64,000 nt of DNA from Candidatus Micrarchaeota archaeon (GTDB taxonomy: Archaea > B1Sed10-29 > JAJRYS01). Below, piece by piece: positions 8,488-58,854 of the stretch. The notes under the pieces are model-generated. The model saw nothing but the letters and a program-made list of their open reading frames with translations, was not told the DNA's origin and did no database searches. Every line of letters starts with the position of its first letter. Position 1 is the stretch's first letter. The stretch lies in the NCBI GenBank assembly GCA_964643685.1, contig CAZXTN010000003.1:10462-74461 (forward strand), given 5' to 3'. The translations under genes and the position numbers were made by a program.

Positions 8488-9735
8488 ATGCAAGTATTAA
8501 AAGAAAACACACAAGGAATTTTTTACGCTTCTTTAATGCTATTTCTTGTATTTGGCTTAACATTCATACTAGTAACTACTTTGAATCCATTTGAAACAAA
8601 TTCATTAAATTTAAAAGCACCAGCACAGCCAGTAATACTCCCCATAGAATCACCAAGCTGCCCTGTTAACTTAACAACAATAACAAGCAAAGACACTGCA
8701 ACTTTAAAATGGAACTTATGCAATGAAACAGATTTTTACAGGCTAAACAAAAGAGTTTTAAACGGCAGTTGGCAATGGGTAAAAGATTATGAAAAAACAA
8801 GAAACAATGCCCTTGTATTAAGACAAGAAGAAGATATGGAATACAGGATCATAGCCTTAATAGGAGAGTCACTGCAATTAAATGGAACAGAAAATAACAC
8901 AATTTTAAACATTTCAAACACGATATTAATCCCAGCTAAAATACAAGAAGAGAGCAATACAAACACAACCCAAGAACAAGACAACTCAACAAGCCCTGAA
9001 AATGAAACAAGTTCAGAGCAGCAATTCACTTGTGCAATAAGCTTAAATTCACTTCAACAAAACAACAGCAGCCAATATACTTTAAAATGGAACTTGTGCA
9101 ATGAAACAGATTTTTACAGGCTAAACAAAAGAGTTTTAAACGGCAGTTGGCAATGGGTAAAAGATTATGAAAAAACAAGAAACAATACAAATGTATCAAT
9201 GGAAGACAAGGAAATAGAATACAGGATAATAGCAGCAAAAGGGCAGTCACTGCAGTTAAACGGAACAGAAAACATTACAATCCTAAACATTTCAAACACA
9301 GTGCTAATCCCTGCATTAATACAACAAGAAGAAAACACTACAAACACAACCCAAGAACAAAACACTACAACAGAAAATCCGCAGAATGAAACAAGCACAA
9401 GCAATACAACAAGCACGCAACAATGCAGCGACTCAGATGCAGGAATAAATAAAAACATTCAAGGAACAGCAACTCTTGGAACCACTTCAAAAACAGACTA
9501 CTGCTCAGGAGGAGGCTTAATAGAATACTACTGCTTAGACAATCAAATAAAATCAGTTTACATTTCATGCGAAGACACATGCCAGAATGGAAAATGCATA
9601 ACAAATACAACTCAAAATATCACCTCAACAGAAGAACCAGAACAAGTTCAACCACAACCAACAGTCAAAACAAACACAAACCCTTCAATAATAGACATTT
9701 TTTCAGCAATAATAAAATACTTTTTCAAAGTATAA
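8488..9735 (+). CDS. Secreted/anchored N-glycosylation-rich protein with an internal duplicated ~95-aa module and Cys-rich C-terminus
   Basis: N-terminal hydrophobic anchor. Two near-identical copies of TLKWNLCNETDFYRLNKRVLNGSWQWVKDYEKTRNN...LQLNGTEN.TILNISNT.LIPA. Dense NxT/NxS sequons, and a C-terminal cluster of 8 Cys. Confidence 0.6.
   Translation: MQVLKENTQGIFYASLMLFLVFGLTFILVTTLNPFETNSLNLKAPAQPVILPIESPSCPVNLTTITSKDTATLKWNLCNETDFYRLNKRVLNGSWQWVKDYEKTRNNALVLRQEEDMEYRIIALIGESLQLNGTENNTILNISNTILIPAKIQEESNTNTTQEQDNSTSPENETSSEQQFTCAISLNSLQQNNSSQYTLKWNLCNETDFYRLNKRVLNGSWQWVKDYEKTRNNTNVSMEDKEIEYRIIAAKGQSLQLNGTENITILNISNTVLIPALIQQEENTTNTTQEQNTTTENPQNETSTSNTTSTQQCSDSDAGINKNIQGTATLGTTSKTDYCSGGGLIEYYCLDNQIKSVYISCEDTCQNGKCITNTTQNITSTEEPEQVQPQPTVKTNTNPSIIDIFSAIIKYFFKV
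8701..9363 (+). repeat. Intragenic duplication: two ~285-bp near-identical copies, starting at 8701 and 9079 (378 bp apart)
   Basis: Direct comparison of 8701..8985 with 9079..9363 shows long identical runs, e.g. ctttaaaatggaactt.tgcaatgaaacagatttttacaggctaaacaaaagagttttaaacggcagttggcaatgggtaaaagattatgaaaaaacaagaaacaat. Confidence 0.85.
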
Positions 9736-12639: not shown

Positions 12640-12851
12640 TCCCAACGGCCGTCCGTTGGATCGACAGGCCATCTTTCGGCTTCGCCTTCGATGACCTCTA
12701 AAAAAAAGAGGGCTCTCATTTTCTTTTTTAAAAAACATAAAGAAGAAGTTATCGAGCAAAGCGAAGATAACTTTAATTTTTCGTCACTTGTCAAAGAGAG
12801 GCTTTTAAAAGCAAAACCCTGCTTAGTAAAAAAACAGAGGTGAGTTAAAAA

Positions 12852-13097
12852 ATGAAACTCAATGAAAAAAACTTTGCAATAGCATCAGGATTAACCTGGG
12901 GACTGTGGTTGTTTGTCCTGACAATAATTTCAACAGCAACAGGCTATGCAGCAGCAATTTTAGCTCCACTAAGTTCAATATACATAGGATACACAGTAAG
13001 CTATGTTGGAAGCATAATAGGGCTAATCTGGGGATTCATAGACGCAGGAATAGGAATGTACATCCTTGCTTGGATTTACAACAAGCTAGGAGAATAA
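12852..13097 (+). CDS. Small hydrophobic membrane protein, hypothetical
   Basis: 81 aa, two or three TM helices, AGGTGA RBS. Confidence 0.45.
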   Translation: MKLNEKNFAIASGLTWGLWLFVLTIISTATGYAAAILAPLSSIYIGYTVSYVGSIIGLIWGFIDAGIGMYILAWIYNKLGE

Positions 13098-13101
13098 AAG
13101 A

Positions 13102-13162
13102 CAAGCAATAAAAGCGTCCTTTAAGCTTTGATTCAAAAAAAGGACGCGTTATTGCTTTTTTC
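13102..13162. terminator. Long imperfect hairpin followed by T6/A8 (bidirectional terminator-like)
   Basis: CAAGCAATAAAAGCGTCCTTT pairs with AAAGGACGCGTTATTGCTT across a 17-nt loop, then TTTTTTCAAAAAAAA. Lies 5 nt after the stop at 13097. Confidence 0.45.
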
Positions 13163-13330
13163 AAAAAAAAATTAATTCAAAAACAAGCTTAACCAAAAAG
13201 TTTAAATACTACTTTTATTAGAAGTATATAAAACTTACTATTTTTTTGTTTTTTAGTGAAAATAGTGAGTTTAAAAAAAAATTAAATGAAATTGCTAATT
13301 CTTTTTTAAAAAAAATTAAAAGGTGTGTAA

Positions 13331-14389
13331 ATGGTTGTTAAAAAAAAGCAAGTTAAGAAGAAAACAGTCGCTAAGAAATCAGTTAAAAAACATGTAAAAA
13401 AAACAACAAAAGCAGCAAAAAAGACATTAAAAAAAGAAGAACCAGTTGAAGTTAAAAAAACAGAAGCCACTAACCAGAATCATCATCAAATAGTATGCCC
13501 TGAATGCGGAAGCACTGACATTACAAAGGATTATGCAAGAGCAGAATTAGTATGCAACAAATGCGGGCTTGTTTTAGAAGAAGATATTATTGATACTGGA
13601 CAGGAATGGAGGGCTTTTGACAGCGAACAGAGGGCTTCAAGAGCAAGAACAGGAGCTCCAATCAAATTCACTAAGCCAAACAAAGGGCTTTCAACTGAAA
13701 TAGACCAATACAACAGGGACATAAGAGGAGTTAAAATTTCAGCTAAGTCAAAAGCGCAGATGACTAGATTAAGAAAATGGCACAAGAGAACCTCCATTTC
13801 ATCTTCAATGGAAAGAAACCTTGCAATTGCCTTAAGCGAATTAGAGAGAATCTGCTCTTCTCTTTCGCTTCCTTCAAACATAAGAGAAGCATCTGCCTTA
13901 CTTTATAGAAAAGCAGTTGAAAAAGGACTTATCAGAGGCAGGTTGATTGAATCAGTAGTAGCTGCTGTAATTTACACTATCTGCAGGCAATATGGAATTC
14001 CAAGAACACTTGATGAAATCTCAGCAGTGTCAGGAATCAACAAGAAAGAAATTGGAAGAACTTACAGGTTCTTAAAAAAAGACTTAGGAATTAACATGCC
14101 TTTAACCAACCCAGTTCATTACATTCCAAGATTTGCTTCTGAACTAGGTTTAAGCGGTGAAGTTCAGGAAAAAGCAAGAGAAATACTGGAACAGGCAATT
14201 GACTCTGGATTGATTTCAGGAAGAGGACCAACAGGAGTAGCAGCAGCAGCTGTTTACATAGCAGGAGTCCTGATGGGCGAGAGGAAAACACAGAAAGAAG
14301 TAGCTGACGTAGCTGGAGTAACTGAAGTCACCATTAGGAACAGGTACAGGGAATTGAAAGAAAAATTAGGATTAGACGTGCCTGCTTAA
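13331..14389 (+). CDS. tfb: Transcription initiation factor IIB (TFB) with ~55-aa lysine-rich N-terminal extension
   Basis: CPECGS...CNKCG zinc ribbon, B-linker and two cyclin-fold repeats. ATG at 13331 has an AGGTGTG RBS, so the lysine-rich extension (MVVKKKQVKKKTVAKKSVKKHVKKTTKAAKKTLKK) appears to be translated. Confidence 0.9.
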   Translation: MVVKKKQVKKKTVAKKSVKKHVKKTTKAAKKTLKKEEPVEVKKTEATNQNHHQIVCPECGSTDITKDYARAELVCNKCGLVLEEDIIDTGQEWRAFDSEQRASRARTGAPIKFTKPNKGLSTEIDQYNRDIRGVKISAKSKAQMTRLRKWHKRTSISSSMERNLAIALSELERICSSLSLPSNIREASALLYRKAVEKGLIRGRLIESVVAAVIYTICRQYGIPRTLDEISAVSGINKKEIGRTYRFLKKDLGINMPLTNPVHYIPRFASELGLSGEVQEKAREILEQAIDSGLISGRGPTGVAAAAVYIAGVLMGERKTQKEVADVAGVTEVTIRNRYRELKEKLGLDVPA

Positions 14390-15847: not shown

Positions 15848-16321
15848 ATGTTGTTTAAAGATGCTTTGAAAAAAAGCAGGGGAGTTGAAGAAGTTAGTGC
15901 TTTGAATGAAAGCAGTGACAAGGAATTGACTGCTGCAATGGCTATTTTAAAGCCAGGAGTTTATGAAGTGCATGAATGGATTTTCATGTATTATAATGGA
16001 AAAGAAAATAAAACAACGCAAGTAGTGGTTACTGAACAAGGCGTTGAAGTGAAGAACCCTGAACAGCCTTTAAAACCAAGCACTGTTGCTCTTGATTTAA
16101 GTAAAGTTAAAACAAATTCAGATAATATGATTAAAAAAGCAGTTGATGAATTTAAAAAATACAAGAAGCCGTTAAGCCAAGTGATTATTAATTTGACACA
16201 AGAAGAAAAGCCTGTTTGGAGGTTCAGTTTTATTACAAAAAGCTTGGAAGTAGTGACAATCAAAATCAATGCAGAAACAGGCGAAGTTTTAGATAAAAAG
16301 ATACAAGCGTTAACTAAATAA
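15848..16321 (+). CDS. Hypothetical protein
   Basis: 157-aa ORF, no recognised motif; possibly a PepSY-like fold. Confidence 0.35.
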   Translation: MLFKDALKKSRGVEEVSALNESSDKELTAAMAILKPGVYEVHEWIFMYYNGKENKTTQVVVTEQGVEVKNPEQPLKPSTVALDLSKVKTNSDNMIKKAVDEFKKYKKPLSQVIINLTQEEKPVWRFSFITKSLEVVTIKINAETGEVLDKKIQALTK

Positions 16322-16452
16322 AAGACAGCTAAGCGAAGCGCATGCTGTCTACAGGGGAATCAGAAACTCCCTAGAAATCAATCGCCTAAAGACTCAAACG
16401 TTTTTCCTTAACAGGAAAAACTGAGAGGGGCAGCCAGCCCCCTGCGTTTCGG
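16322..16452 (+). repeat. GC-rich structured element, copy A (fills the whole gap between convergent stop codons)
   Basis: Contains the 16-nt core CTAAGCGAAGCGCATG shared with copies at 33867..33882 (reverse complement) and 55929..55944. Hairpins GACAGC-[TAAGCGAAGCGCAT]-GCTGTC and GGGGC-AGCCA-GCCCC show compensatory changes relative to the other copies. Confidence 0.7.
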
Positions 16453-16839
16453 TTAGATTTTCTTGTCTTCTCCGAATTTTTCATCCAAGTCCCTTTTGAT
16501 TGAATTGCAGTCTGCAATAATCACGTCAAGGTGCTTAGTCATTCTGTCTTTTTCTTTTTCAATTTCTTTTGCTTTCCTGTATGGCTTTGAAGCTTCTTTG
16601 AACATCCTGTAGTCAAGCATTGCGTAAGGATACTCGTTCATTTTTTTGGTTACGTCATCTACTATTTCAGCAAGAAATTGATTCATTGCAATCTTTACTT
16701 CTTTTTTAATCATTTTGCCTGAATCAATGTGTTTTTTCATTTCCCTTACAATAGTTGCTGTTGGAAAAACCAAGTCAAGCTTGTCATCTTCAACTTCGTC
16801 TTCGACAACTTCGTCAATTTTTTCATCTAAATCAGCCAT
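16453..16839 (-). CDS. Histone-fold-like small acidic protein (putative)
   Basis: 128 aa; an acidic N-terminus, then a central helix-loop-helix region (FPTATIVREMKK...IAMNQFLAEIVDDVTKKM) reminiscent of a histone / NF-YB-like fold. Weak. Confidence 0.35.
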   Translation of the reverse strand: MADLDEKIDEVVEDEVEDDKLDLVFPTATIVREMKKHIDSGKMIKKEVKIAMNQFLAEIVDDVTKKMNEYPYAMLDYRMFKEASKPYRKAKEIEKEKDRMTKHLDVIIADCNSIKRDLDEKFGEDKKI

Positions 16840-33762: not shown

Positions 33763-33800
33763 AAAAATTAGATTATATATTCTTTCATTCTTCTTTTGAT
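33763..33800. repeat. 38-bp perfect direct repeat (left copy) flanking element copy B; duplicates the last 11 codons plus stop of gene 33978..34661
   Basis: aaaaattagattatatattctttcattcttcttttgat is identical at 33973..34010. Confidence 0.9.
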
Positions 33801-33972
33801 CACCGAGCCGCGGGGGACTCACCGCCCCCCTCAACTCTAGGTAACTCCTGCTCCCCCTGCTGACCACATGCGCTTCGCTTAGTGCTCATTTTTAGGGAAT
33901 TCTTGAAAACTTTGAGTTTTCAAGTTTGCGAAGTTATATTTCGCATAATCTGATCTCCCTCCTTAATAATAA
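33801..33972 (-). repeat. GC-rich structured element, copy B (minus orientation), with an extra AT-rich 5' module containing a 10-bp perfect hairpin
   Basis: The reverse complement reads ATGAGCACTAAGCGAAGCGCATGTGGTCAGCAGGGGGAGCAGGAG...GGGGGGCGGTGAGTCCCCCGCGGCTCGGTG, which is 42/42 identical to copy C over its first 42 nt. The extra module contains CTTGAAAACT-caa-AGTTTTCAAG. Confidence 0.8.
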
Positions 33973-34010
33973 AAAAATTAGATTATATATTCTTTCATTC
34001 TTCTTTTGAT
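33973..34010. repeat. 38-bp perfect direct repeat (right copy); overlaps the 3' end of gene 33978..34661
   Basis: Identical to 33763..33800. Confidence 0.9.
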
Positions 34011-34661
34011 TTCGTCAAGAGGAAGAACAGTAGTTACTAATGGAATTTTTTCAACCTCTGAAATCTTAAGAGCAACCTTGTCAACTTCAGAAATGTTATG
34101 AAGCACAACCATGGTAGGCTTCAATTTAGTTACACGGATTGCAATCAAAGGGCTTCTTCCCATTGAAACATTAGTGAAAATCAAAGCCCTTTCAGTAGTG
34201 TTGCCGTAAATTTTAATAAATTCATCAGCAGGCAGTTCAAGAATAGCGCGGATAGAATCAACAATAGTAAAGCCGTAAATTTTGGTTTTTTTCAGAACTG
34301 CTTCGTTTGAAATTATTCTCCCTTCAATTGATTTTACAAAATCCTTTGACTTCATTGACTTGGAAAAATCCTCCACGTCAAAAACTTCACTTGGCTTCTG
34401 CAATTGAAGCTTTTTATAAACCCAGCCTCCTTTCTGCCTGTCAATTTCAATAATGGCATTCACAAACCTTTTAATAATGCTTGCTCCTGGACTCTTTCTC
34501 CTATTCCCTTCATAATCAGAGATAGTTGAAGGAGTTACATTTAAAAAATCAGCTAATTCAGTTTGAGAAATTCCGAAAATTTCACGCCATTTTTTCAAAG
34601 AAGAGCCAGGGTTGTCACTTAAGGTAATTTCCCCTGCAATGTCAAGCAAAATCTTGTCCAT
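33978..34661 (-). CDS. HTH (XRE-type) transcriptional regulator with C-terminal DRTGG-like domain (putative)
   Basis: N-terminal HTH LKKWREIFGISQTELADFLNVTPSTISDYE; the C-terminal ...ALIFTNVSMGRSPLIAIRVTKLKPTMVVLHNISEVDKVALKISEVEKIPLVTT resembles a DRTGG domain. Confidence 0.5.
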   Translation of the reverse strand: MDKILLDIAGEITLSDNPGSSLKKWREIFGISQTELADFLNVTPSTISDYEGNRRKSPGASIIKRFVNAIIEIDRQKGGWVYKKLQLQKPSEVFDVEDFSKSMKSKDFVKSIEGRIISNEAVLKKTKIYGFTIVDSIRAILELPADEFIKIYGNTTERALIFTNVSMGRSPLIAIRVTKLKPTMVVLHNISEVDKVALKISEVEKIPLVTTVLPLDEIKRRMKEYII

Positions 34662-35217
34662 TATCTACAATAAACGTAAAAGGGATTTAAAAAACAGTTA
34701 GTTTAAAAAGGGGGGTAGGAGAGGGGGAAAAATTGGCTCACCCAGCCAAAGAAATCCTCTTTGTATATAAAAGAAGAATTGTTGCTAATCCTCTCCAAAA
34801 AATTGGACTATTTAAAAATTTAACAAGTCAAGTATATAAAGGTTATGGTTAAATGAGCAGTTGAATTGGACAAATTTTCAATCAAATCTCATAAAATTGA
34901 ATATTTTTGTATAAGTGAAGAATGTTAAGAAATTTTATTGCAAGTTTGTCTATTTTCTAACAATAAGTTTATATATTTATTTAGTGTTGATTTTAATTAA
35001 GAACTGGAGGTGGTTTGAAATTAAACTCAAACCAGTTAGAACAATGTGAGAAGGGTTCAGGGGGAAAGGCTCACCCAGCCAATAGGGATTTTATTTGCTC
35101 CTTCCTCCCTTCTCCAACTTCACCCTTTTTTTCAGAATTTCTTGTTTTTTAAGAAAAAGGGATTAGTCTAGGTTTTTCTGCTGGATAGTGTTTTAAAGAA
35201 AAAAGAGAGAGAGGGTT

Positions 35218-35463
35218 TTAATAAGGGAAATTGACGACTACGTATCTTCCTACTGCTTTTACTTCGCTGAATGGAATGTTCAGCAAGCCGTGCTTGTCAA
35301 GGTGGTCTTTTATTTCTTTAAGTTCATGATCTGGCTTGACAATAAGGTTTGTTAAAGCGCCGTTTATTTCAAAGTAAACATCCATTACTTCCCCTAGTTC
35401 TAATCCGCTGTTGGAAACTACTTTTTTTTCAAGCAAGTGCTTTCCTAATATTGGTTTTGACAT
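35218..35463 (-). CDS. PRC-barrel domain protein
   Basis: 81 aa; G.VMDVYFEINGALTNLIVKP pattern. Confidence 0.5.
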   Translation of the reverse strand: MSKPILGKHLLEKKVVSNSGLELGEVMDVYFEINGALTNLIVKPDHELKEIKDHLDKHGLLNIPFSEVKAVGRYVVVNFPY

Positions 35464-44422: not shown

Positions 44423-44534
44423 TGGACTCGGCGGGAGTTGAACCCGCGGCCTCTCCCACGCCAAGGGAGCAATCTGTAGCGAAAACAATCCGTTTGGGGA
44501 AGTGGGTTTGTTTTTACCACTGATCTACGAGCCC
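44423..44534 (-). tRNA. tRNA-Ala (anticodon GGC) carrying a ~38-nt non-canonical intron in the D-arm region
   Basis: Reverse-strand hand fold: acceptor GGGCTCG/CGAGTCC with a G3-U70 wobble (the Ala identity pair); anticodon stem CTCCC/GGGAG, loop TTGGCGT; T arm GCGGG-TTCAACT-CCCGC. Total 112 nt, with the extra sequence between the D-stem strands (GATC ... GATT). CCA not encoded. Confidence 0.7.
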
Positions 44535-44672
44535 GGTTGTAAAGAAAGGTTTTTTGCTGGTTAAATTTAGTTTTTTGGTTATTTTTAATTGTTTTTGAAG
44601 AATAAGGATTTGATTTAAATTAAGGAGAAGGGAAGGTGGGGGCTTCCTTTCTTTTGAAGGGTTTTTTGCTGT

Positions 44673-53359: not shown

Positions 53360-53606
53360 AAAAACCTTTAAAAACAATTAAAAGCATTAATTGAAAACAG
53401 AAGAGGGTTTTAACGCGACCATGCAACCAAAACAGCCTCTTTCTGAAAAAAACAAATATTGATTAGAGTTGATTATCAAATGGACTTTAAGTTAAAAGAA
53501 AAACGCTGGAACACGGCTTTTCTTTTAAAAAAAGAAAACACCGGGAAAAGAAAACTAACCACATTCGACTACGTCGAAGTGCTTAGAAAAAAAGAGTGGT
53601 GAAGAA

Positions 53607-55916
53607 ATGGACTTTAAGTTAAAAGAAAAACGCTGGAATACTGATATTGAAAACGAGATAAACGAAAAATGGAAGCAGGAAAAATTATACAAATTCAACA
53701 AAAACACAGAAAAAGAGATAATTACAATTGACAACCCACCAGCATACCCAAGCGGACACTGGCACCCCGGCTCAGCAACAGGATACTCATACATAGACAT
53801 GATAGCACGCTACGAAAGAATGAACGGAAAAGAAATCAACTTCCCATACTGCCTTGACAGAAACGGCTTGCCAATTGAAATGGCAGTTGAAAAAAAATAC
53901 AAAAAAAGCGCACACGACTATGACAGGGAAAAATTCCTAAAACTCTGCGAACAAACAATCTCAGAATTCGGAGAAGAAATCAGAACCGGCTACGAAAAAC
54001 TAGGAATATCAGTAGATTACGAAAACTACTACTACACAGACATGGAAGAATACAGAAAACTAACACAAGCAACTTTCATAGAACTATACAAAAAAGGTTT
54101 AATCTATGAAGACGACAGGCCAACAAACTGGTGCACTGGATGCAAAACAACAATAGCAGATTCAGAAATAGAATACAACGAAGGCACAATAAAACTAAAC
54201 AAGTTAAAATTCAAAGTAAAAGAAACAGGAGAAGAAATAGAAATAGCAACAACCCGTCCTGAACTATTATGCGCTTGTGAAACCGTAATATACAATCCAA
54301 AAGATAGCAGGTACAAGCACTTGAACGGAAAACATGCAATCACTCCAATATACGAAAAAGAAGTTTTAATACAACCGCACCCAGCAGCTTCAATGGAATA
54401 CGGCTCAGGCTTAGTAATGATATGCTCATACGGGGACTCAACAGACGTGCAGTTATTCATTGAACTCGGTTTAAAGCCAACAAAGGCAATTGACAAGCAT
54501 AGGAAAATGACAGAAGCAGCTGGAAAATACGCGGGATTAACAGTGCCAGAAGCAAGGGAAAAAATAATCAAAGAACTGGAAGAAACAGGCGTGTTAATAG
54601 GACAAGAAGACACGCCGCACAGGTACCCAATATGCGAAAGATGCCACTCCCCAGTTGAAATCATAGCAATAAAAGAATTCTACTTAAAACAAATAGAGTT
54701 CCTAGACAAAGTAAAAGAGATGGCTGACAAGACAAAATTCTATCCAGCAAAACACAAGCAAATACTCTTCGACTGGATAGACAGCGTGAAAATCGACTGG
54801 CCAATAAGCAGAAGAAGGTACTACGCAACAGAGATACCATTATGGTACTGTGAAAAATGCGGAGAACTCCTCCTCCCAGAACCAGGAGAATATTACCAGC
54901 CATGGAAAAATAACCCGCCTGAAGGAAGCAAGTGTTCAAAATGCGGAGGAACAGAATTCAAAGGAGAAACAAGAGTATTCGACACTTGGATGGACTCCTC
55001 AATATCAAACTTATACGTAAGCGGATACAAAAGAGACGAAGAATTATTTAACAAAACATTTGGAAAAATCATACGCCCACAGGGAAGAGACATTGTAAGA
55101 ACATGGCTCTATTACACAATGCTAAGAAATTACCAGTTGCTTGAACAGCCTGCTTTTGAAAAAGTAATGATACACGGCATGGGCTTAGACGAGCATGGTA
55201 AGAAGATGAGCAAAAGCAAAGGCAACTTTATCTCACCAGAAGAAATGCTTTCAAAATACGGAGCAGACGCTTGGAGATTATGGGCAGCTTCAGAAACAAA
55301 CATGGGAGAAGATTTCAGGATATCAGAAGAAAGAATAAAAGGAGCGTCAAAATTCCTGACAAAACTATGGAACCTAAGCAGGTTCATCTCCACATTTGAA
55401 ATAAAAGAAACAGGAGAATTAAAAAACACGGACCACTGGATACTCGCAGAATTAAACCAATTAATAAAACAAAGTAAAGAAGGATACGAAGAATACAACT
55501 TCTACATCCCAGCTACAAGAATCAAAGAATTTATTTGGAACACTTTCTCATCAAACTATGTTGAAATGGTAAAACCAAGAGCATATGAAGGGGACACAGG
55601 AGCACTATACACCCTGCACACCTGTTTAAAGACAATTTTGAAATTATTAGCTCCAATCACTCCGTTCATAACAGACAAGGTATATAGAGAAGTATATGGA
55701 AAAACAGTACACTTAGAGGCATTCCCAGAGGAGAATGAGAATTGGAACAGCAACTTCAAGGAGTTAACAGAAAAAATAATTGAATTCAATTCAATGGTAT
55801 GGAAGACAAAAAAAGAACAAGGATTATCACTAAACAGCGAAATAGAAGGAATAAAAATACCAAGCGAATTAAAACCATTTGAAGACGACTTAATCAAAAT
55901 GCACAAGTTGAAATAA
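53607..55916 (+). CDS. valS: Class I aminoacyl-tRNA synthetase, ValRS-like (short, 769 aa)
   Basis: The N-terminus resembles archaeal ValRS (IDNPPAYPSGHWHPGS...IDMIARYERMNG...LDRNGLPIEMAVEKK, WCTGCKTTIADSEIEY, KMSKSKGN). The HIGH box is atypical (HWHPGS). Confidence 0.6.
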   Translation: MDFKLKEKRWNTDIENEINEKWKQEKLYKFNKNTEKEIITIDNPPAYPSGHWHPGSATGYSYIDMIARYERMNGKEINFPYCLDRNGLPIEMAVEKKYKKSAHDYDREKFLKLCEQTISEFGEEIRTGYEKLGISVDYENYYYTDMEEYRKLTQATFIELYKKGLIYEDDRPTNWCTGCKTTIADSEIEYNEGTIKLNKLKFKVKETGEEIEIATTRPELLCACETVIYNPKDSRYKHLNGKHAITPIYEKEVLIQPHPAASMEYGSGLVMICSYGDSTDVQLFIELGLKPTKAIDKHRKMTEAAGKYAGLTVPEAREKIIKELEETGVLIGQEDTPHRYPICERCHSPVEIIAIKEFYLKQIEFLDKVKEMADKTKFYPAKHKQILFDWIDSVKIDWPISRRRYYATEIPLWYCEKCGELLLPEPGEYYQPWKNNPPEGSKCSKCGGTEFKGETRVFDTWMDSSISNLYVSGYKRDEELFNKTFGKIIRPQGRDIVRTWLYYTMLRNYQLLEQPAFEKVMIHGMGLDEHGKKMSKSKGNFISPEEMLSKYGADAWRLWAASETNMGEDFRISEERIKGASKFLTKLWNLSRFISTFEIKETGELKNTDHWILAELNQLIKQSKEGYEEYNFYIPATRIKEFIWNTFSSNYVEMVKPRAYEGDTGALYTLHTCLKTILKLLAPITPFITDKVYREVYGKTVHLEAFPEENENWNSNFKELTEKIIEFNSMVWKTKKEQGLSLNSEIEGIKIPSELKPFEDDLIKMHKLK

Positions 55917-56013
55917 AAAAAATGAGCACTAAGCGAAGCGCATGTGGTCAGCAGGGGGATCAGGATATCCCTAAAACTGAGGGGGACGGCAAGTCCCCCG
56001 CGGTTTGGATTGG
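55917..56013 (+). repeat. GC-rich structured element, copy C, inserted directly after the ValRS stop
   Basis: aaaaATGAGCACTAAGCGAAGCGCATGTGGTCAGCAGGGGGATCAGGATATCCCTAAAACTGAGGGGGACGGCAAGTCCCCCGCGGTTTGGATTGG; flanked by 25-bp imperfect direct repeats at 55896..55920 and 56016..56040. Confidence 0.8.
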
Positions 56014-56070
56014 AAAAAATGCACAAGTTAAAATGAAAAAAGTGAAAACCAAAAGTGGTGAATAGATAAA

Positions 56071-58854
56071 ATGTATGACTTTAAAAAAGTAGAAGAGGAA
56101 ATGCTGAAGCACTGGGAGGAAAACAAAATCTTCCAAAAGTTAATGGAACAAAACAAGGGAAAAGAAAAATACAGGTTCATAGACGGGCCAATCACTGCAA
56201 ACAATCCAATGGGAGTTCACCACGCTTACTCAAGGACATTAAAAGACGCTTATCAAAGGCTAAAAGCAATGCAAGGATACAATCAAAGATTTCAAAACGG
56301 ATTCGACTGCCACGGCTTGCCAGTGGAAGTGGTGGTAGAAAAAGATTTAGGCATAAGCACAAAAAAAGAATTAGAACAATATGGCATTGAAAAATTCATT
56401 GAGAAATGCAAGCAAAGAGTAGCAAAAATGAGCGAAATACAAAAACAGCAATCAATACGCTTAGGGCAATGGATGGACTGGGACAACAGTTATTACACAA
56501 TGAGTGATGAGAACATTGAAACAATATGGGCTTTCCTTAAAAAAACACATGAAAAAAACATGCTTTACAAGGGGCACAAGGTAGTTCCGTGGTGCTGGAG
56601 ATGCGGAACATCCCTTTCACAACACGAGTTAGCAGACGGCTACAAAGAACTGACACACGACACTGTTTACCTGCAATTCAAAATCAAAGGAAGAGACAAT
56701 GAATACTTGTTAGTTTGGACTACAACGCCATGGACTCTTTCTTCAAACGTAGCCTGCGCAGTCGGCTTAGATATTGTTTACTTGAAAGCAAAAAAAGACG
56801 GCAAAATTTACTATGTTTCTAAAAAAGTAGCTGAAGAAGTTTTAGGAAGTGATTATGAAGAACTTGGAGAAGTAAGCGGAGCGCAGTTGATTGGCTTGGA
56901 ATACGAGGGGCCATACGACAACTTGCCTGCTCAAAAAGGAGTTGTTCACAAAGTAGTTGACTGGGAAGAAGTAGGAGAAGAAGATGGAACAGGAATAGTT
57001 CACATTGCGCCAGGCTGCGGAGCAGAGGACTTCGAACTAGGAAAAGAAAGAAACCTACCAGCAATAGCCCCAATAGATGAAAACGGCGAATATGTAGAGG
57101 GCTTCGGGTGGCTGACAGGAAAACACGTCAAAGAAGTCAAGCCATTAATCATCAAAGACCTGGAAGAAAGAGGAATCTTGTTCAAAGTTGGAAAAATCAC
57201 GCACAGGTACCCAACTTGCTGGAGATGCAAAGAAGAACTCGTGTTCAGAAAAACAGATTCATGGTTCATAAAAGCAGATGAAGTAAGGGACAAAATGAAA
57301 GAATTAAACGAAAAAATTTACTGGTACCCTGACTTCGGCGGAAAAATAATGAACAACTGGCTAGACAACTTGAAGGACTGGAATTTTTCAAGAAAAAGAT
57401 ACTGGGGAGCGCCTCTTCCATTCTGGGTATGTGAAAAATGCGGACACCTCCACGTAATAGGCTCGAGAAAAGAACTAGAAGAAAAAGCAATTAAGGGAAT
57501 TGAGCAATTGAATGATCTTCACCGCCCTAACATTGACAAGGTTGTAATTAAATGCGAAGAATGTGGAGCAGATGCAAAAAGAGTTGAGGAAGTCGCAGAT
57601 GCCTGGCTTGACTCAGGAGTCGTGCCATACTCCACTTTGCATTACTTAAAAGACAAGAACTACTGGGAAGAATGGTTCCCAAGCGAATTCATTTCAGAAA
57701 TGAGAGAACAGATACGCCTATGGTTCTATTCAATGCTGTTCATAAGCACGGTAATGGAAGAAAAAACTCCATTCGAGAAAGCGCTTATTTTTGAAAAAGT
57801 ATACGATGAAAAAGGAAGAGAAATGCACAAGTCAGGTAAAAACGTCATATGGTTCGATGAAGGCATTGAAAAAATAGGAGCAGATGTAATGAGATGGATG
57901 TACGTCAAGACAAACCCGACTCAAAACGTGCTATTCGGATACACCATAGGAAGAGAAGTGAACAACAAACTAAGTTACTTAGTAAACATAGGAAACTACT
58001 TGGAAAAATTCCTTGAAGAAAAACCAGAGGAAGTGAAAGCAGTTAAGCCAGAAGACAAGTGGCTGTTGTCAAGGCTTGAGAAGACAAAAAAAGAAGCCAC
58101 GCAACACCTTGAAAAACTTGAAATACATTTGGCAACTAGAAAAATAGAAGACTTCCTTGAAAACACCCTGTCAAAAGAATACATCAAATACACAAGAAAC
58201 AGGATGAAAACAGAGAAAAAAGAAGTAACAGGTTTGATTTACAAAGCACTCTTAGATACAGCTAAAATGATGGCTCCATTCACGCCATTCATAACAGACT
58301 ACATTTACCAAAAGCACTTCAAGAAATACGAAGAAAAAGAAAGCATTCATTTGATGCAATGGCCTTCATACAACGAGCATTTAATTGATGAAAATCTTGA
58401 AGAAGAAATGAATGAAGTCAAAAAAACAATAGAAGAAGGACTAGCTAAAAGAAACGAGCTAAAAATTAATTTAAGGCAGCCTCTTCAAAAAATGACAATA
58501 ACAGCAAAAAAACTAGACAAGTGGTTTGACTTAATAAAAGAACAAGTAAACGTAAAAGAAATAGAAGAAGGAGAAGAGATAGGATTAGACACGAATATTA
58601 CCCCTGAACTTGCAAAAGAGGGACTAACAAGAGAGATAACCAGAAGAATACAACAAATGAGAAAAGAATTGAAACTAATAGAATCAGATGAAATACTATT
58701 AAATATCAACCCAAAGCCAGACATCAACTACGAAGAACTTCAAAAAACAACAAACGCAGAAAAAGCAGGAGAATTAAGCGAAGCTGACTTGACTAAAAAA
58801 TTCAAAGTAAAAGAAACTGAATATGAAATTAAGCTGAAAAAAAAGAAAAATTAA
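56071..58854 (+). CDS. ileS: Isoleucyl-tRNA synthetase
   Basis: QNGFDCHGLPVEVVVEKDLG, WCWRCGTSL and the C-terminal Zn-binding CxxC pairs fit IleRS; 927 aa. Confidence 0.65.
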   Translation: MYDFKKVEEEMLKHWEENKIFQKLMEQNKGKEKYRFIDGPITANNPMGVHHAYSRTLKDAYQRLKAMQGYNQRFQNGFDCHGLPVEVVVEKDLGISTKKELEQYGIEKFIEKCKQRVAKMSEIQKQQSIRLGQWMDWDNSYYTMSDENIETIWAFLKKTHEKNMLYKGHKVVPWCWRCGTSLSQHELADGYKELTHDTVYLQFKIKGRDNEYLLVWTTTPWTLSSNVACAVGLDIVYLKAKKDGKIYYVSKKVAEEVLGSDYEELGEVSGAQLIGLEYEGPYDNLPAQKGVVHKVVDWEEVGEEDGTGIVHIAPGCGAEDFELGKERNLPAIAPIDENGEYVEGFGWLTGKHVKEVKPLIIKDLEERGILFKVGKITHRYPTCWRCKEELVFRKTDSWFIKADEVRDKMKELNEKIYWYPDFGGKIMNNWLDNLKDWNFSRKRYWGAPLPFWVCEKCGHLHVIGSRKELEEKAIKGIEQLNDLHRPNIDKVVIKCEECGADAKRVEEVADAWLDSGVVPYSTLHYLKDKNYWEEWFPSEFISEMREQIRLWFYSMLFISTVMEEKTPFEKALIFEKVYDEKGREMHKSGKNVIWFDEGIEKIGADVMRWMYVKTNPTQNVLFGYTIGREVNNKLSYLVNIGNYLEKFLEEKPEEVKAVKPEDKWLLSRLEKTKKEATQHLEKLEIHLATRKIEDFLENTLSKEYIKYTRNRMKTEKKEVTGLIYKALLDTAKMMAPFTPFITDYIYQKHFKKYEEKESIHLMQWPSYNEHLIDENLEEEMNEVKKTIEEGLAKRNELKINLRQPLQKMTITAKKLDKWFDLIKEQVNVKEIEEGEEIGLDTNITPELAKEGLTREITRRIQQMRKELKLIESDEILLNINPKPDINYEELQKTTNAEKAGELSEADLTKKFKVKETEYEIKLKKKKN

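Follow-up and report, generated by a model that had tools for sequence, protein, structure and literature searches.

Short, GC-rich hairpin elements such as the REP/BIME sequences, the Rickettsia palindromic elements, the GC clusters of yeast mitochondria and the 'byp' elements show either no target duplication or one of 2-10 bp. Mobile endonuclease elements of organelles (e.g., Allomyces atp6) bring a replacement C-terminal segment to a gene and leave the resident end downstream as a pseudo-copy. Target-primed duplications are expected to be identical at birth and then to decay neutrally. To our knowledge, this route, as used by SINE/LINE-type elements, is not represented by any such element in archaea. 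Here, we describe a ~95-nt hairpin element that resembles each of these systems in part, and also the attL/attR cores of integrative elements. It was found in 64,000 nt of a Candidatus Micrarchaeota archaeon genome (assembly GCA_964643685.1, contig CAZXTN010000003.1, positions 10,462 to 74,461 of the forward strand; hereafter the window). One of its copies, copy C, lies just behind the valyl-tRNA synthetase (ValRS) gene, bracketed by two copies of the last codons of that gene.

In total, ~92 kb of this genome and ~47 kb of a sister species were analysed. Positions are window coordinates unless they carry the prefix of another locus (L###); L207 and L209 are on the same contig, outside the window. 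The window is AT-rich (~36% GC), holds an intron-bearing tRNA, and its proteins are closest by homology to those of DPANN archaea, including homologues labelled Micrarchaeota. The sister contigs were obtained via close homologues of ValRS, of a helix-turn-helix (HTH) gene and of MetK, and most of their genes share 75-84% nucleotide identity with the window genome, the figure for the species being ~82%.

The ValRS gene (53607..55916, plus strand, 769 aa) is an open reading frame (ORF) with the Pfam domains tRNA-synt_1 and Anticodon_1 and with homologues named valine--tRNA ligase. Its last seven codons belong to the left, live copy of the repeat (55896..55925, plus strand), which consists of the last six sense codons, the TAA stop and an A-run and is continuous with the gene body. 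Element copy C (55919..56013, plus strand) is a GC-rich sequence of three hairpins, P1 with the loop UAAGCGAAGCGCAU, then P2, then P3/P4. The right, spare copy of the repeat (56016..56045, plus strand) is joined to the ancestral spacer, AAAAAAGTGA..., ahead of the downstream neighbour of ValRS, a gene for a class-I aminoacyl-tRNA synthetase (56071..58854, plus strand, 927 aa). The two repeat copies start exactly 120 nt apart, which places the right one in the ValRS reading frame. A preliminary description of this DNA had given the gene end as AAA ATG CAC AAG TTG AAA TAA and the copy at 56016 as AAA ATG CAC AAG TTA AAA TGA, and both were confirmed. It had put the repeat at 25 bp; the repeat is real but longer, with 27 of 30 positions matching between 55896-55925 and 56016-56045, and its similarity fades out by ~37 nt (31/37). 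It continues for at least 9 nt beyond the stop codon, and this noncoding tail carries a third mismatch (A/G). Within the 21 formerly coding bases, the Leu codon (synonymous) and the stop are indeed all that distinguishes the two copies, as had been stated. Local alignment placed the repeat far above chance, with a score of 22.5 where the best of 60 shuffled controls reached 14.5 (z = 9.7).

Comparison with the sister species revealed the site before the insertion. There, the ValRS gene has a single end, and its stop codon is followed by 19 nt and then by the next gene, without an element; the right copy of the window and the AAAAAAGTGA... that follows it are collinear with this empty site. Copy C is a lineage-specific insertion with target duplication. 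The site of copy B is likewise empty, a 38-nt gap with the same gene layout in three independent assemblies (L130, L131 and L132, from ENA, JGI and Logan; the sequence was compared for L130 and L131), and at the site of copy A the sister has a 50-nt AT-rich spacer and no element. No element copy was found in the ~47 kb of sister DNA.

These empty sites also dispose of several alternatives, namely slippage or tandem duplication without incoming DNA, a variable repeat/template repeat (VR/TR) pair of a diversity-generating retroelement (DGR), or an assembly artefact. In their favour stands a pair of direct repeats lying close together, one at a gene 3' end, but taken together we consider these alternatives highly improbable, since the empty-site comparison and the copy-number data already refute them. 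Slippage is excluded because the sister lacks the element and has single gene ends at the sites of copies A, B and C, and the 95 nt between the repeats belong to a multi-copy element of which the empty site has no trace; the preliminary description had also found slippage the poorer fit. The DGR pair was rejected, as the copy C mismatches run both ways (G/A, A/G) and are not adenine-specific, the repeats are 30 nt long, and no reverse transcriptase was found in the parts scanned. Against an artefact, the assembly k-mer (141) exceeds the length of the repeats. Two retrievals of the ENA contig reproduced the copy C locus of the window, with ValRS and a 47-aa ORF across the element, without any difference; the look-up also reported two further similar places. 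The sister copy B site agrees in its three sources.

The element is present in five copies in the ~92 kb, three in the window (A, B and C) and two just past its right end (D and E), and the alignment is good across all five. Copy A (16319..16457, plus strand) has an extra 44-nt hairpin and occupies the entire gap between two convergent genes, 15848..16321 (plus strand) and 16453..16839 (minus strand). Copy B (33798-33892, minus strand) is 88% identical to copy C. Copy D (L207:3524-3628), in which the first hairpin is missing, shares 94% identity with copy A, and copy E is found at L207:4260-4354 (minus strand). A covariance model built from the five copies recovered them at 48-112 bits (copy C, 111.7 bits) and elsewhere found weak partial relatives only, in other DPANN loci. 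In the consensus fold, a GCGAAGC mini-hairpin lies within the 14-nt UAAGCGAAGCGCAU loop of P1, P2 is short, and P3/P4 forms a long hairpin. Three base pairs of P1 and one of P4 are altered on both sides between subfamilies. Single copies folded better than shuffled sequences (z = -3.2 to -4.0); for copy C the predicted energy was -38.6 kcal/mol (z = -3.6), and its sense strand was predicted to fold better than the antisense strand.

Being multi-copy, with a fold conserved through compensatory changes and no coding signal, the element has the properties of a structured noncoding repeat. The ENA annotation has a 47-aa ORF over copy C (55922..56065), and a small protein gene was rejected: in the frame that begins with ATG, 12 bases distinguish copies B and C and only one of these changes is synonymous, and copy A has no start codon. 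A C/D-box reading was rejected on sequence. An integron attC site was rejected as well, with a GTTRRRY-like 3' end in two of the five copies (A, GTTAGAT; E, GTTAAGT), CTAAG instead of YAAC as the 5' box, and housekeeping genes as neighbours. No tRNA or tmRNA was found at the element. For the element, no Rfam family reached its gathering threshold, either in the window or across a set of 13 loci, and an E-value search of the copy C region gave chance-level hits only (E >= 1.8).

Other small inserts in this genome share the GCGAAGC mini-hairpin core. When a genome collection was scanned for the loop, most matches were due to chance or belonged to unrelated hairpins of a bacterial family. The loop is present in seven archaeal loci, the majority labelled DPANN, and in five it clearly sits on a complementary stem. 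One of the loci with the same P1 loop, the Woesearchaeota-like L001, has a 59-nt repeat (58/59) that is wholly noncoding. In two metagenome scans, the pattern of the element 5' part had no matches, and that of the 3' hairpin had 71, all in unrelated GC-rich genomes. Three matches in the viral-contig scan were all unrelated, and nothing relevant was found in the literature on the loop sequence or on Micrarchaeota mobile repeats.

The bacterial family is an observation of its own. The UAAGCGAAGCGCAU loop tops a widespread repeat hairpin, ATYYCGAC-UAAGCGAAGCGCAU-GGAGRRAT, with covarying stems and tandem G-A pairs, in Bacteroidota (Prevotella), candidate phyla radiation bacteria, Clostridia, Proteobacteria, Marinicella and others (L003, L007, L037, L046, L058, L079, L085, L103, L116 and others; viral, L120 and L122). 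A form with a Watson-Crick stem is found in L058 (Planctomycetota), and another version in L085, from a metagenome-assembled genome labelled only 'bacterium'. The family had no Rfam match. It shares with the archaeal element the identical 14-nt loop with its GCGAAGC core on a covarying stem, but the stems and the context are different, there are tandem G-A pairs, and no gene-end duplication was seen around these hairpins.

At four of the five element copies, the 3' end of the gene that lies upstream in the same orientation is found on both sides of the element as a direct repeat; copy A has no flanking repeat. At copy B the upstream gene is the HTH gene (33978..34661), and the repeats match at 38 of 38 positions. 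This locus (33763..34010, minus strand) has its live repeat at 33973-34010 and its spare repeat at 33763-33800, each made of the last 11 codons, the stop and 5 nt, and the two enclose an 85-nt AT-rich linker (33888-33972) together with the element. No donor of this linker was found in the ~92 kb. At copy D, which is truncated by 30 nt, ~42 nt of ScpB are repeated with nine substitutions and a 2-nt indel. At copy E, the repeat of ~60 nt holds the last 16 nt of tRNA-Ile and 44 nt of downstream sequence. The four repeats (30, 38, ~42 and ~60 nt) are unrelated in sequence. In all four cases the 3' end of the element is joined directly to the right repeat, and the 5' side varies: no linker separates the element from the left repeat at copies C and D, whereas the 5' side is extended by 24 nt at copy E and by 85 nt at copy B. 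The tRNA-Ile gene of this genome (L207:4419-4494) has no insertion of the kind seen in the tRNA-Ile of the sister (L124:13395-13495), where ~23 nt are inserted near the 5' end, at a non-canonical intron position, in a gene that ARAGORN did not call.

An unbiased local-repeat scan and a gene-end scan showed that the arrangement of gene end, small insert and gene end recurs in both species around unrelated hairpin inserts, and at gene 5' ends too. At least nine gene-end duplications, each around a small hairpin insert, are present in the ~92 kb of this genome and at least two more in the ~47 kb of the sister. The duplicated length is 19-60 nt across all cases, and the sequence is different at every locus. 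This recurrence argues for an insertion or repair process that is general.

ValRS itself is duplicated at both ends. At its 5' end (53478..53638, plus strand), 53478-53511 equals 53605-53638 at all 34 positions, covering the first ten codons, around a 93-nt hairpin insert. The upstream duplicate is 127 nt away and opens a 40-codon upstream ORF that ends 5 nt before the real ATG, and the insert provides the GGTGA ribosome-binding site of the real gene. The sister lacks this duplication; part of the 93-nt insert matches a repeat in the sister contig L130. Between ProRS and ValRS, a hairpin CAGAAGAGG...CCTCTTTCTG (53396-53446; L124:2594-2640) is kept in the sister while the surrounding spacer is not, and it may be a leader or regulatory RNA.

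The 5' end of a metallopeptidase gene (Pfam PhageMetallopep; L207:3735-3821) is repeated at 28 of 31 positions around a 25-nt insert that carries the ribosome-binding site. In the sister, the 3' end of the same gene is repeated over ~57 nt around a ~50-nt hairpin (L130), and the ScpB 3' end is repeated at 57 of 57 positions around a 27-nt hairpin (L124). On L209, the 3' end of a gene for a 168-aa protein (13039..13569) has a repeat of ~20-27 nt and an insert of 180-190 nt, with a period of 207. Also on L209 (15906-16063), a 52-nt repeat lies inside the ORF of an HhH-GPD glycosylase gene, seven codons before the native stop, with a ~50-nt GC hairpin as insert and a period of 102. All four differences between these repeats are synonymous third-position changes. 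The insert holds one in-frame TAG; the gene now terminates inside it, and the protein gains a new tail of nine residues.

Two further observations concern the boundaries. On one stretch of ~137 nt (L207:3629-3765), the spare ScpB 3' end adjoins the spare metallopeptidase start, each differing from its live counterpart by ~13-21%, chiefly at synonymous positions; judged by these sequences, the stretch looks like a single piece of the ScpB-metallopeptidase junction from another lineage. Five of 11 repeats begin at or within 3 nt of ATYAAA (55893-55900, 34008-34013, 53472-53480; L207:3479-3488; L124:13708-13716), a motif that may reflect a target preference.

How do these loci compare with the described systems? 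The preliminary description had likened the repeats to attL/attR cores. As in that case, a gene 3' end lies in direct repeats, a live copy completes the gene, a displaced copy lies downstream and relatives are empty; one member uses a tRNA gene, that of tRNA-Ile, and diverged pairs resemble two live alleles. The analogy is nevertheless not supported. No integrase or other recombinase was found in the DNA scanned, the cargo is 25-190 nt and not kilobases, the repeats differ in sequence and length from locus to locus without one core conserved across the element family, tiny inserts of unrelated sequence and gene 5' ends show the arrangement as well, and several pairs are identical. The hairpin elements named at the outset are also short, GC-rich, multi-copy and non-autonomous and lie behind stop codons or in frame within genes, as does the relative inside the HhH-GPD ORF with its in-frame period of 102 nt, but the present loci have duplications of 19-60 bp and a variable 5' end, and no RAYT-type or other transposase is in view. 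A miniature inverted-repeat transposable element (MITE) would be expected to make a short target duplication of fixed length; in this one family it measures 0, 30, 38, ~42 or ~60 nt. The termini of copy A match at 13 of 16 positions, those of B and C only weakly, and the 5' boundary is inconstant (D truncated, B and E extended). The organelle endonuclease elements share a live incoming gene end, a displaced resident end and mainly synonymous differences between the two; they carry an endonuclease ORF, and there is none in the DNA scanned here.

The fixed 3' end, the variable 5' end and the variable, sometimes long duplications are those of target-primed reverse transcription, and the A-rich starts of the repeats also recall SINE/LINE insertions. 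The differences are that no reverse transcriptase or endonuclease gene was found in the parts scanned of the ~92 kb and that the element 3' end has no A-tail or other tail. Domains of transposases, integrases, reverse transcriptases and TnpB were absent from the 30 ORFs scanned at 386-36651 and from the contig annotations of 50.6-64 kb and of ~19 kb beyond the window ends; of ~37-50.6 kb, a part was judged only by its synteny with annotated housekeeping genes of the sister contig L130.

The explanation that we prefer, and to which we give about an even chance, is a 3'-anchored insertion that duplicated a long stretch of target, after which live alleles of other lineages recombined with the locus. 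The ~95-nt non-autonomous noncoding hairpin element inserted a few bases past the ValRS stop and duplicated 26-30 bp of target, i.e., the last six codons, the stop and the A-run. The left copy keeps the gene whole, and the right copy stays with the original spacer and the start signals of the next gene. Given the 20-50-nt spacers of this genome, such a duplication would be the only harmless way to insert. The process would be anchored at the element 3' end, fused to the right copy, with the 5' side and the duplicated length free to vary. We infer that this happened at the DNA level, either at a long staggered break or through template switching that stopped at the insert 3' end, with the enzyme encoded elsewhere; site-specific recombination at an att core would not be involved. 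Both an att core and a classical MITE are disfavoured by the locus-specific repeats of variable length, the variable 5' and fixed 3' ends, the unrelated inserts and the identical pairs. The latter (38/38, 34/34 and 57/57) look like fresh target duplications.

Insertion with duplication does not account for how the spare copies have diverged. Among 13 duplications, five pairs had diverged; two indels were removed before the substitutions were counted, and some alignment choices were involved. The five pairs have 25 differences in 201 nt, and 20 of the 25 are synonymous or exchange one stop or start codon for another. With the same substitution types placed at random, 7.2 such differences are expected, and none of 20,000 simulations reached 20. 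Third codon positions hold 17 of the 25 (p = 4e-4). The preliminary description had proposed coding constraint on both repeats from copy C, where two mismatches are insufficient: by enumeration, eight of the 21 possible transitions in the seven codons are synonymous or stop-to-stop, so that two function-preserving transitions have p ~0.13. The proposal is upheld by the pooled survey. As for which copy is ancestral, a comparison of the ValRS end with two outgroups (TTA, TAA) assigned one derived change to each copy, TTG to the live and TGA to the spare one. The ScpB pair, polarised by the sister, has ~8 changes on the spare copy, six of them function-preserving, and one on the live copy.

The bias is hard to reconcile with a plain target-site duplication in which the right copy decays neutrally and its synonymous look comes from chance plus synonymous drift of the live copy. 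For this speak the p of ~0.13 at copy C, the many identical pairs, and the frameshifting indels and some non-synonymous changes in spare copies. However, exactly this model, with the live copy restricted to synonymous drift (22% of changes) and the spare copy changing at random, was rejected in the pooled test (p = 3.4e-4), the third-position excess points the same way, and at copy D the repeat is ~21% diverged although the element is 94% identical to copy A. We regard neutral decay as improbable. Since the copy D element is young and its flanking repeat diverged, not all of the repeat divergence has accumulated in place.

The synonymous bias calls for a second ingredient besides insertion, and recombination with insert-free alleles is the least exotic one. 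After the insertion, we infer, homologous recombination with insert-free alleles of other lineages would take place across the heterologous insert; the single gene end of the donor would pair with one of the two copies while the rest is looped out, and one copy would be overwritten by a live allele. Consistent with this, the diverged spare copies look, by their sequences, like live alleles of another lineage. Frameshifting indels (2 nt inserted at copy D, 1 nt in the metallopeptidase pair of the sister) indicate that the spare copies are not coding now. Similarity of ValRS and ScpB to the sister was compared as a sign of recombination tracts and showed no decisive excess.

The main rival generalises the idea of the preliminary description that the incoming DNA brought a gene end with it. 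A hairpin insert with a copy of a gene end would form a miniature integrative cassette that integrates by homology, either Campbell-type via host RadA or with a recombinase acting in trans, and the two repeats would be the donor and recipient alleles, both having been under coding selection. It would explain the synonymous, stop-to-stop and start-to-start bias, a spare ScpB copy that has diverged from the live one about as far as the sister allele while its element is young, the constant fusion of the element 3' end to the right copy, the same ScpB left boundary in two species, and the tRNA-Ile 3' end with downstream sequence, a classical att arrangement. The repeat lengths of 19-60 nt also fall within the minimal-homology range for recombination. 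On the other hand, no integrase was found in the DNA scanned, units of 84-210 bp would make very small circles, inserts of 25-27 nt have no plausible autonomy, and each gene-specific cassette would need a separate origin. The live allele that would encode the spare ScpB tail (...STKVYQTVL) was not found in the 90% protein cluster of ScpB, and the cassette leaves the repeat-less copy A, the multiple-of-3 spacing described below and the diversity of inserts unexplained. We consider it a possible but rather doubtful explanation. That the incoming segment supplied the live 3' end is one viable reading among others. A related thought is that hairpin cassettes insert at gene termini guided by homology, with the cassette carrying the live gene end or with the 3'-fused copy, as an arm or guide, directed at alleles not yet occupied. 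Repeated testing as real gene ends would in that case keep the spare copies in frame and synonymous; we hold this to be unlikely.

The spacing of the repeats follows a rule that was noticed after the fact. All seven 3'-end duplications of protein genes are spaced by a multiple of 3 (84, 102, 120, 120, 150, 207 and 210 nt; chance, 4.6e-4), compared with none of the six noncoding, tRNA or 5'-end cases (56, 56, 112, 127, 175 and 196 nt); L001, at 200 nt, is not a multiple either. The rule points to some reading by ribosomes, yet in-frame stops intervene between the copies in every case (five at copy B). Because of these stops, and because the reading frame through the element changes from locus to locus, the spacing is not explained by simple read-through. 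Translation of the spare copies by read-through, re-initiation or hopping via the hairpin, which starts 3-9 nt past the stop, would put frame and codons under direct selection. It would suit the seven of seven in-frame duplications, the stops retained in spare copies (TAA to TGA twice) and the ValRS frame of copy C, which is open across the whole element after TAA AAA AAA TGA. Besides the intervening stops, it has against it that the element frame differs by locus, that the B/C differences are almost all non-synonymous in any frame, and that the live copy already encodes the full C-terminus, leaving no evident benefit. Such translation seems to us a poor prospect.

Several points weigh against 3'-anchored insertion followed by recombination. 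Neither break nor template-switch nor recombination models predict the multiple-of-3 spacing. Around unrelated inserts, the ScpB duplications of the two species have starting points no more than 1 nt apart, which a random staggered cut does not predict. No enzyme for the insertion was identified in the DNA scanned, and the sample is small.

Other repeats and RNA-like features were seen in the two genomes. A second family of small repeats is common to both species (12640-12700; L209:12780-12960; L130:12250-12510). It includes a CCAACGG-NNNN-CCGTTGG hairpin, CGCGTAAACTTCAGACGRCCGTTGG and GAGGTCATC-GAAGGCGAAGCCGAAA-GATGGCC, and in the window it directly follows tRNA-Leu. At 44423-44564, a 112-nt intron-containing tRNA was called by Rfam and not by ARAGORN, and a 21-nt repeat (19/21, period 112) adjoins it. 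Upstream of the HTH gene, ~550 nt (34662-35217) are without an ORF, and the sister has a gap of 513 nt; an Rfam search of 34640-35240 gave only IMES-5, at 22.6 bits far below its gathering score of 96. Within the ORF 8488..9735 (415 aa), 251 nt are repeated at 8701-9329 with a period of 378; identity is 85% overall and 107/108 in a 108-nt core.

DPANN genomes are tiny and tightly packed, and their mobile DNA is little known. If the insertion mechanism itself is the cause of the pattern seen here, it would be an undescribed way to insert DNA at gene termini while leaving the gene undamaged. If insertion is guided by homology, the hairpins would represent a class of miniature elements, integrative or homing, that is new and lacks its own recombinase. 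The in-frame rule could also point to translation past annotated stops. If the spare copies record recombination between lineages, these loci would be built-in markers of gene flow in uncultivated archaea.

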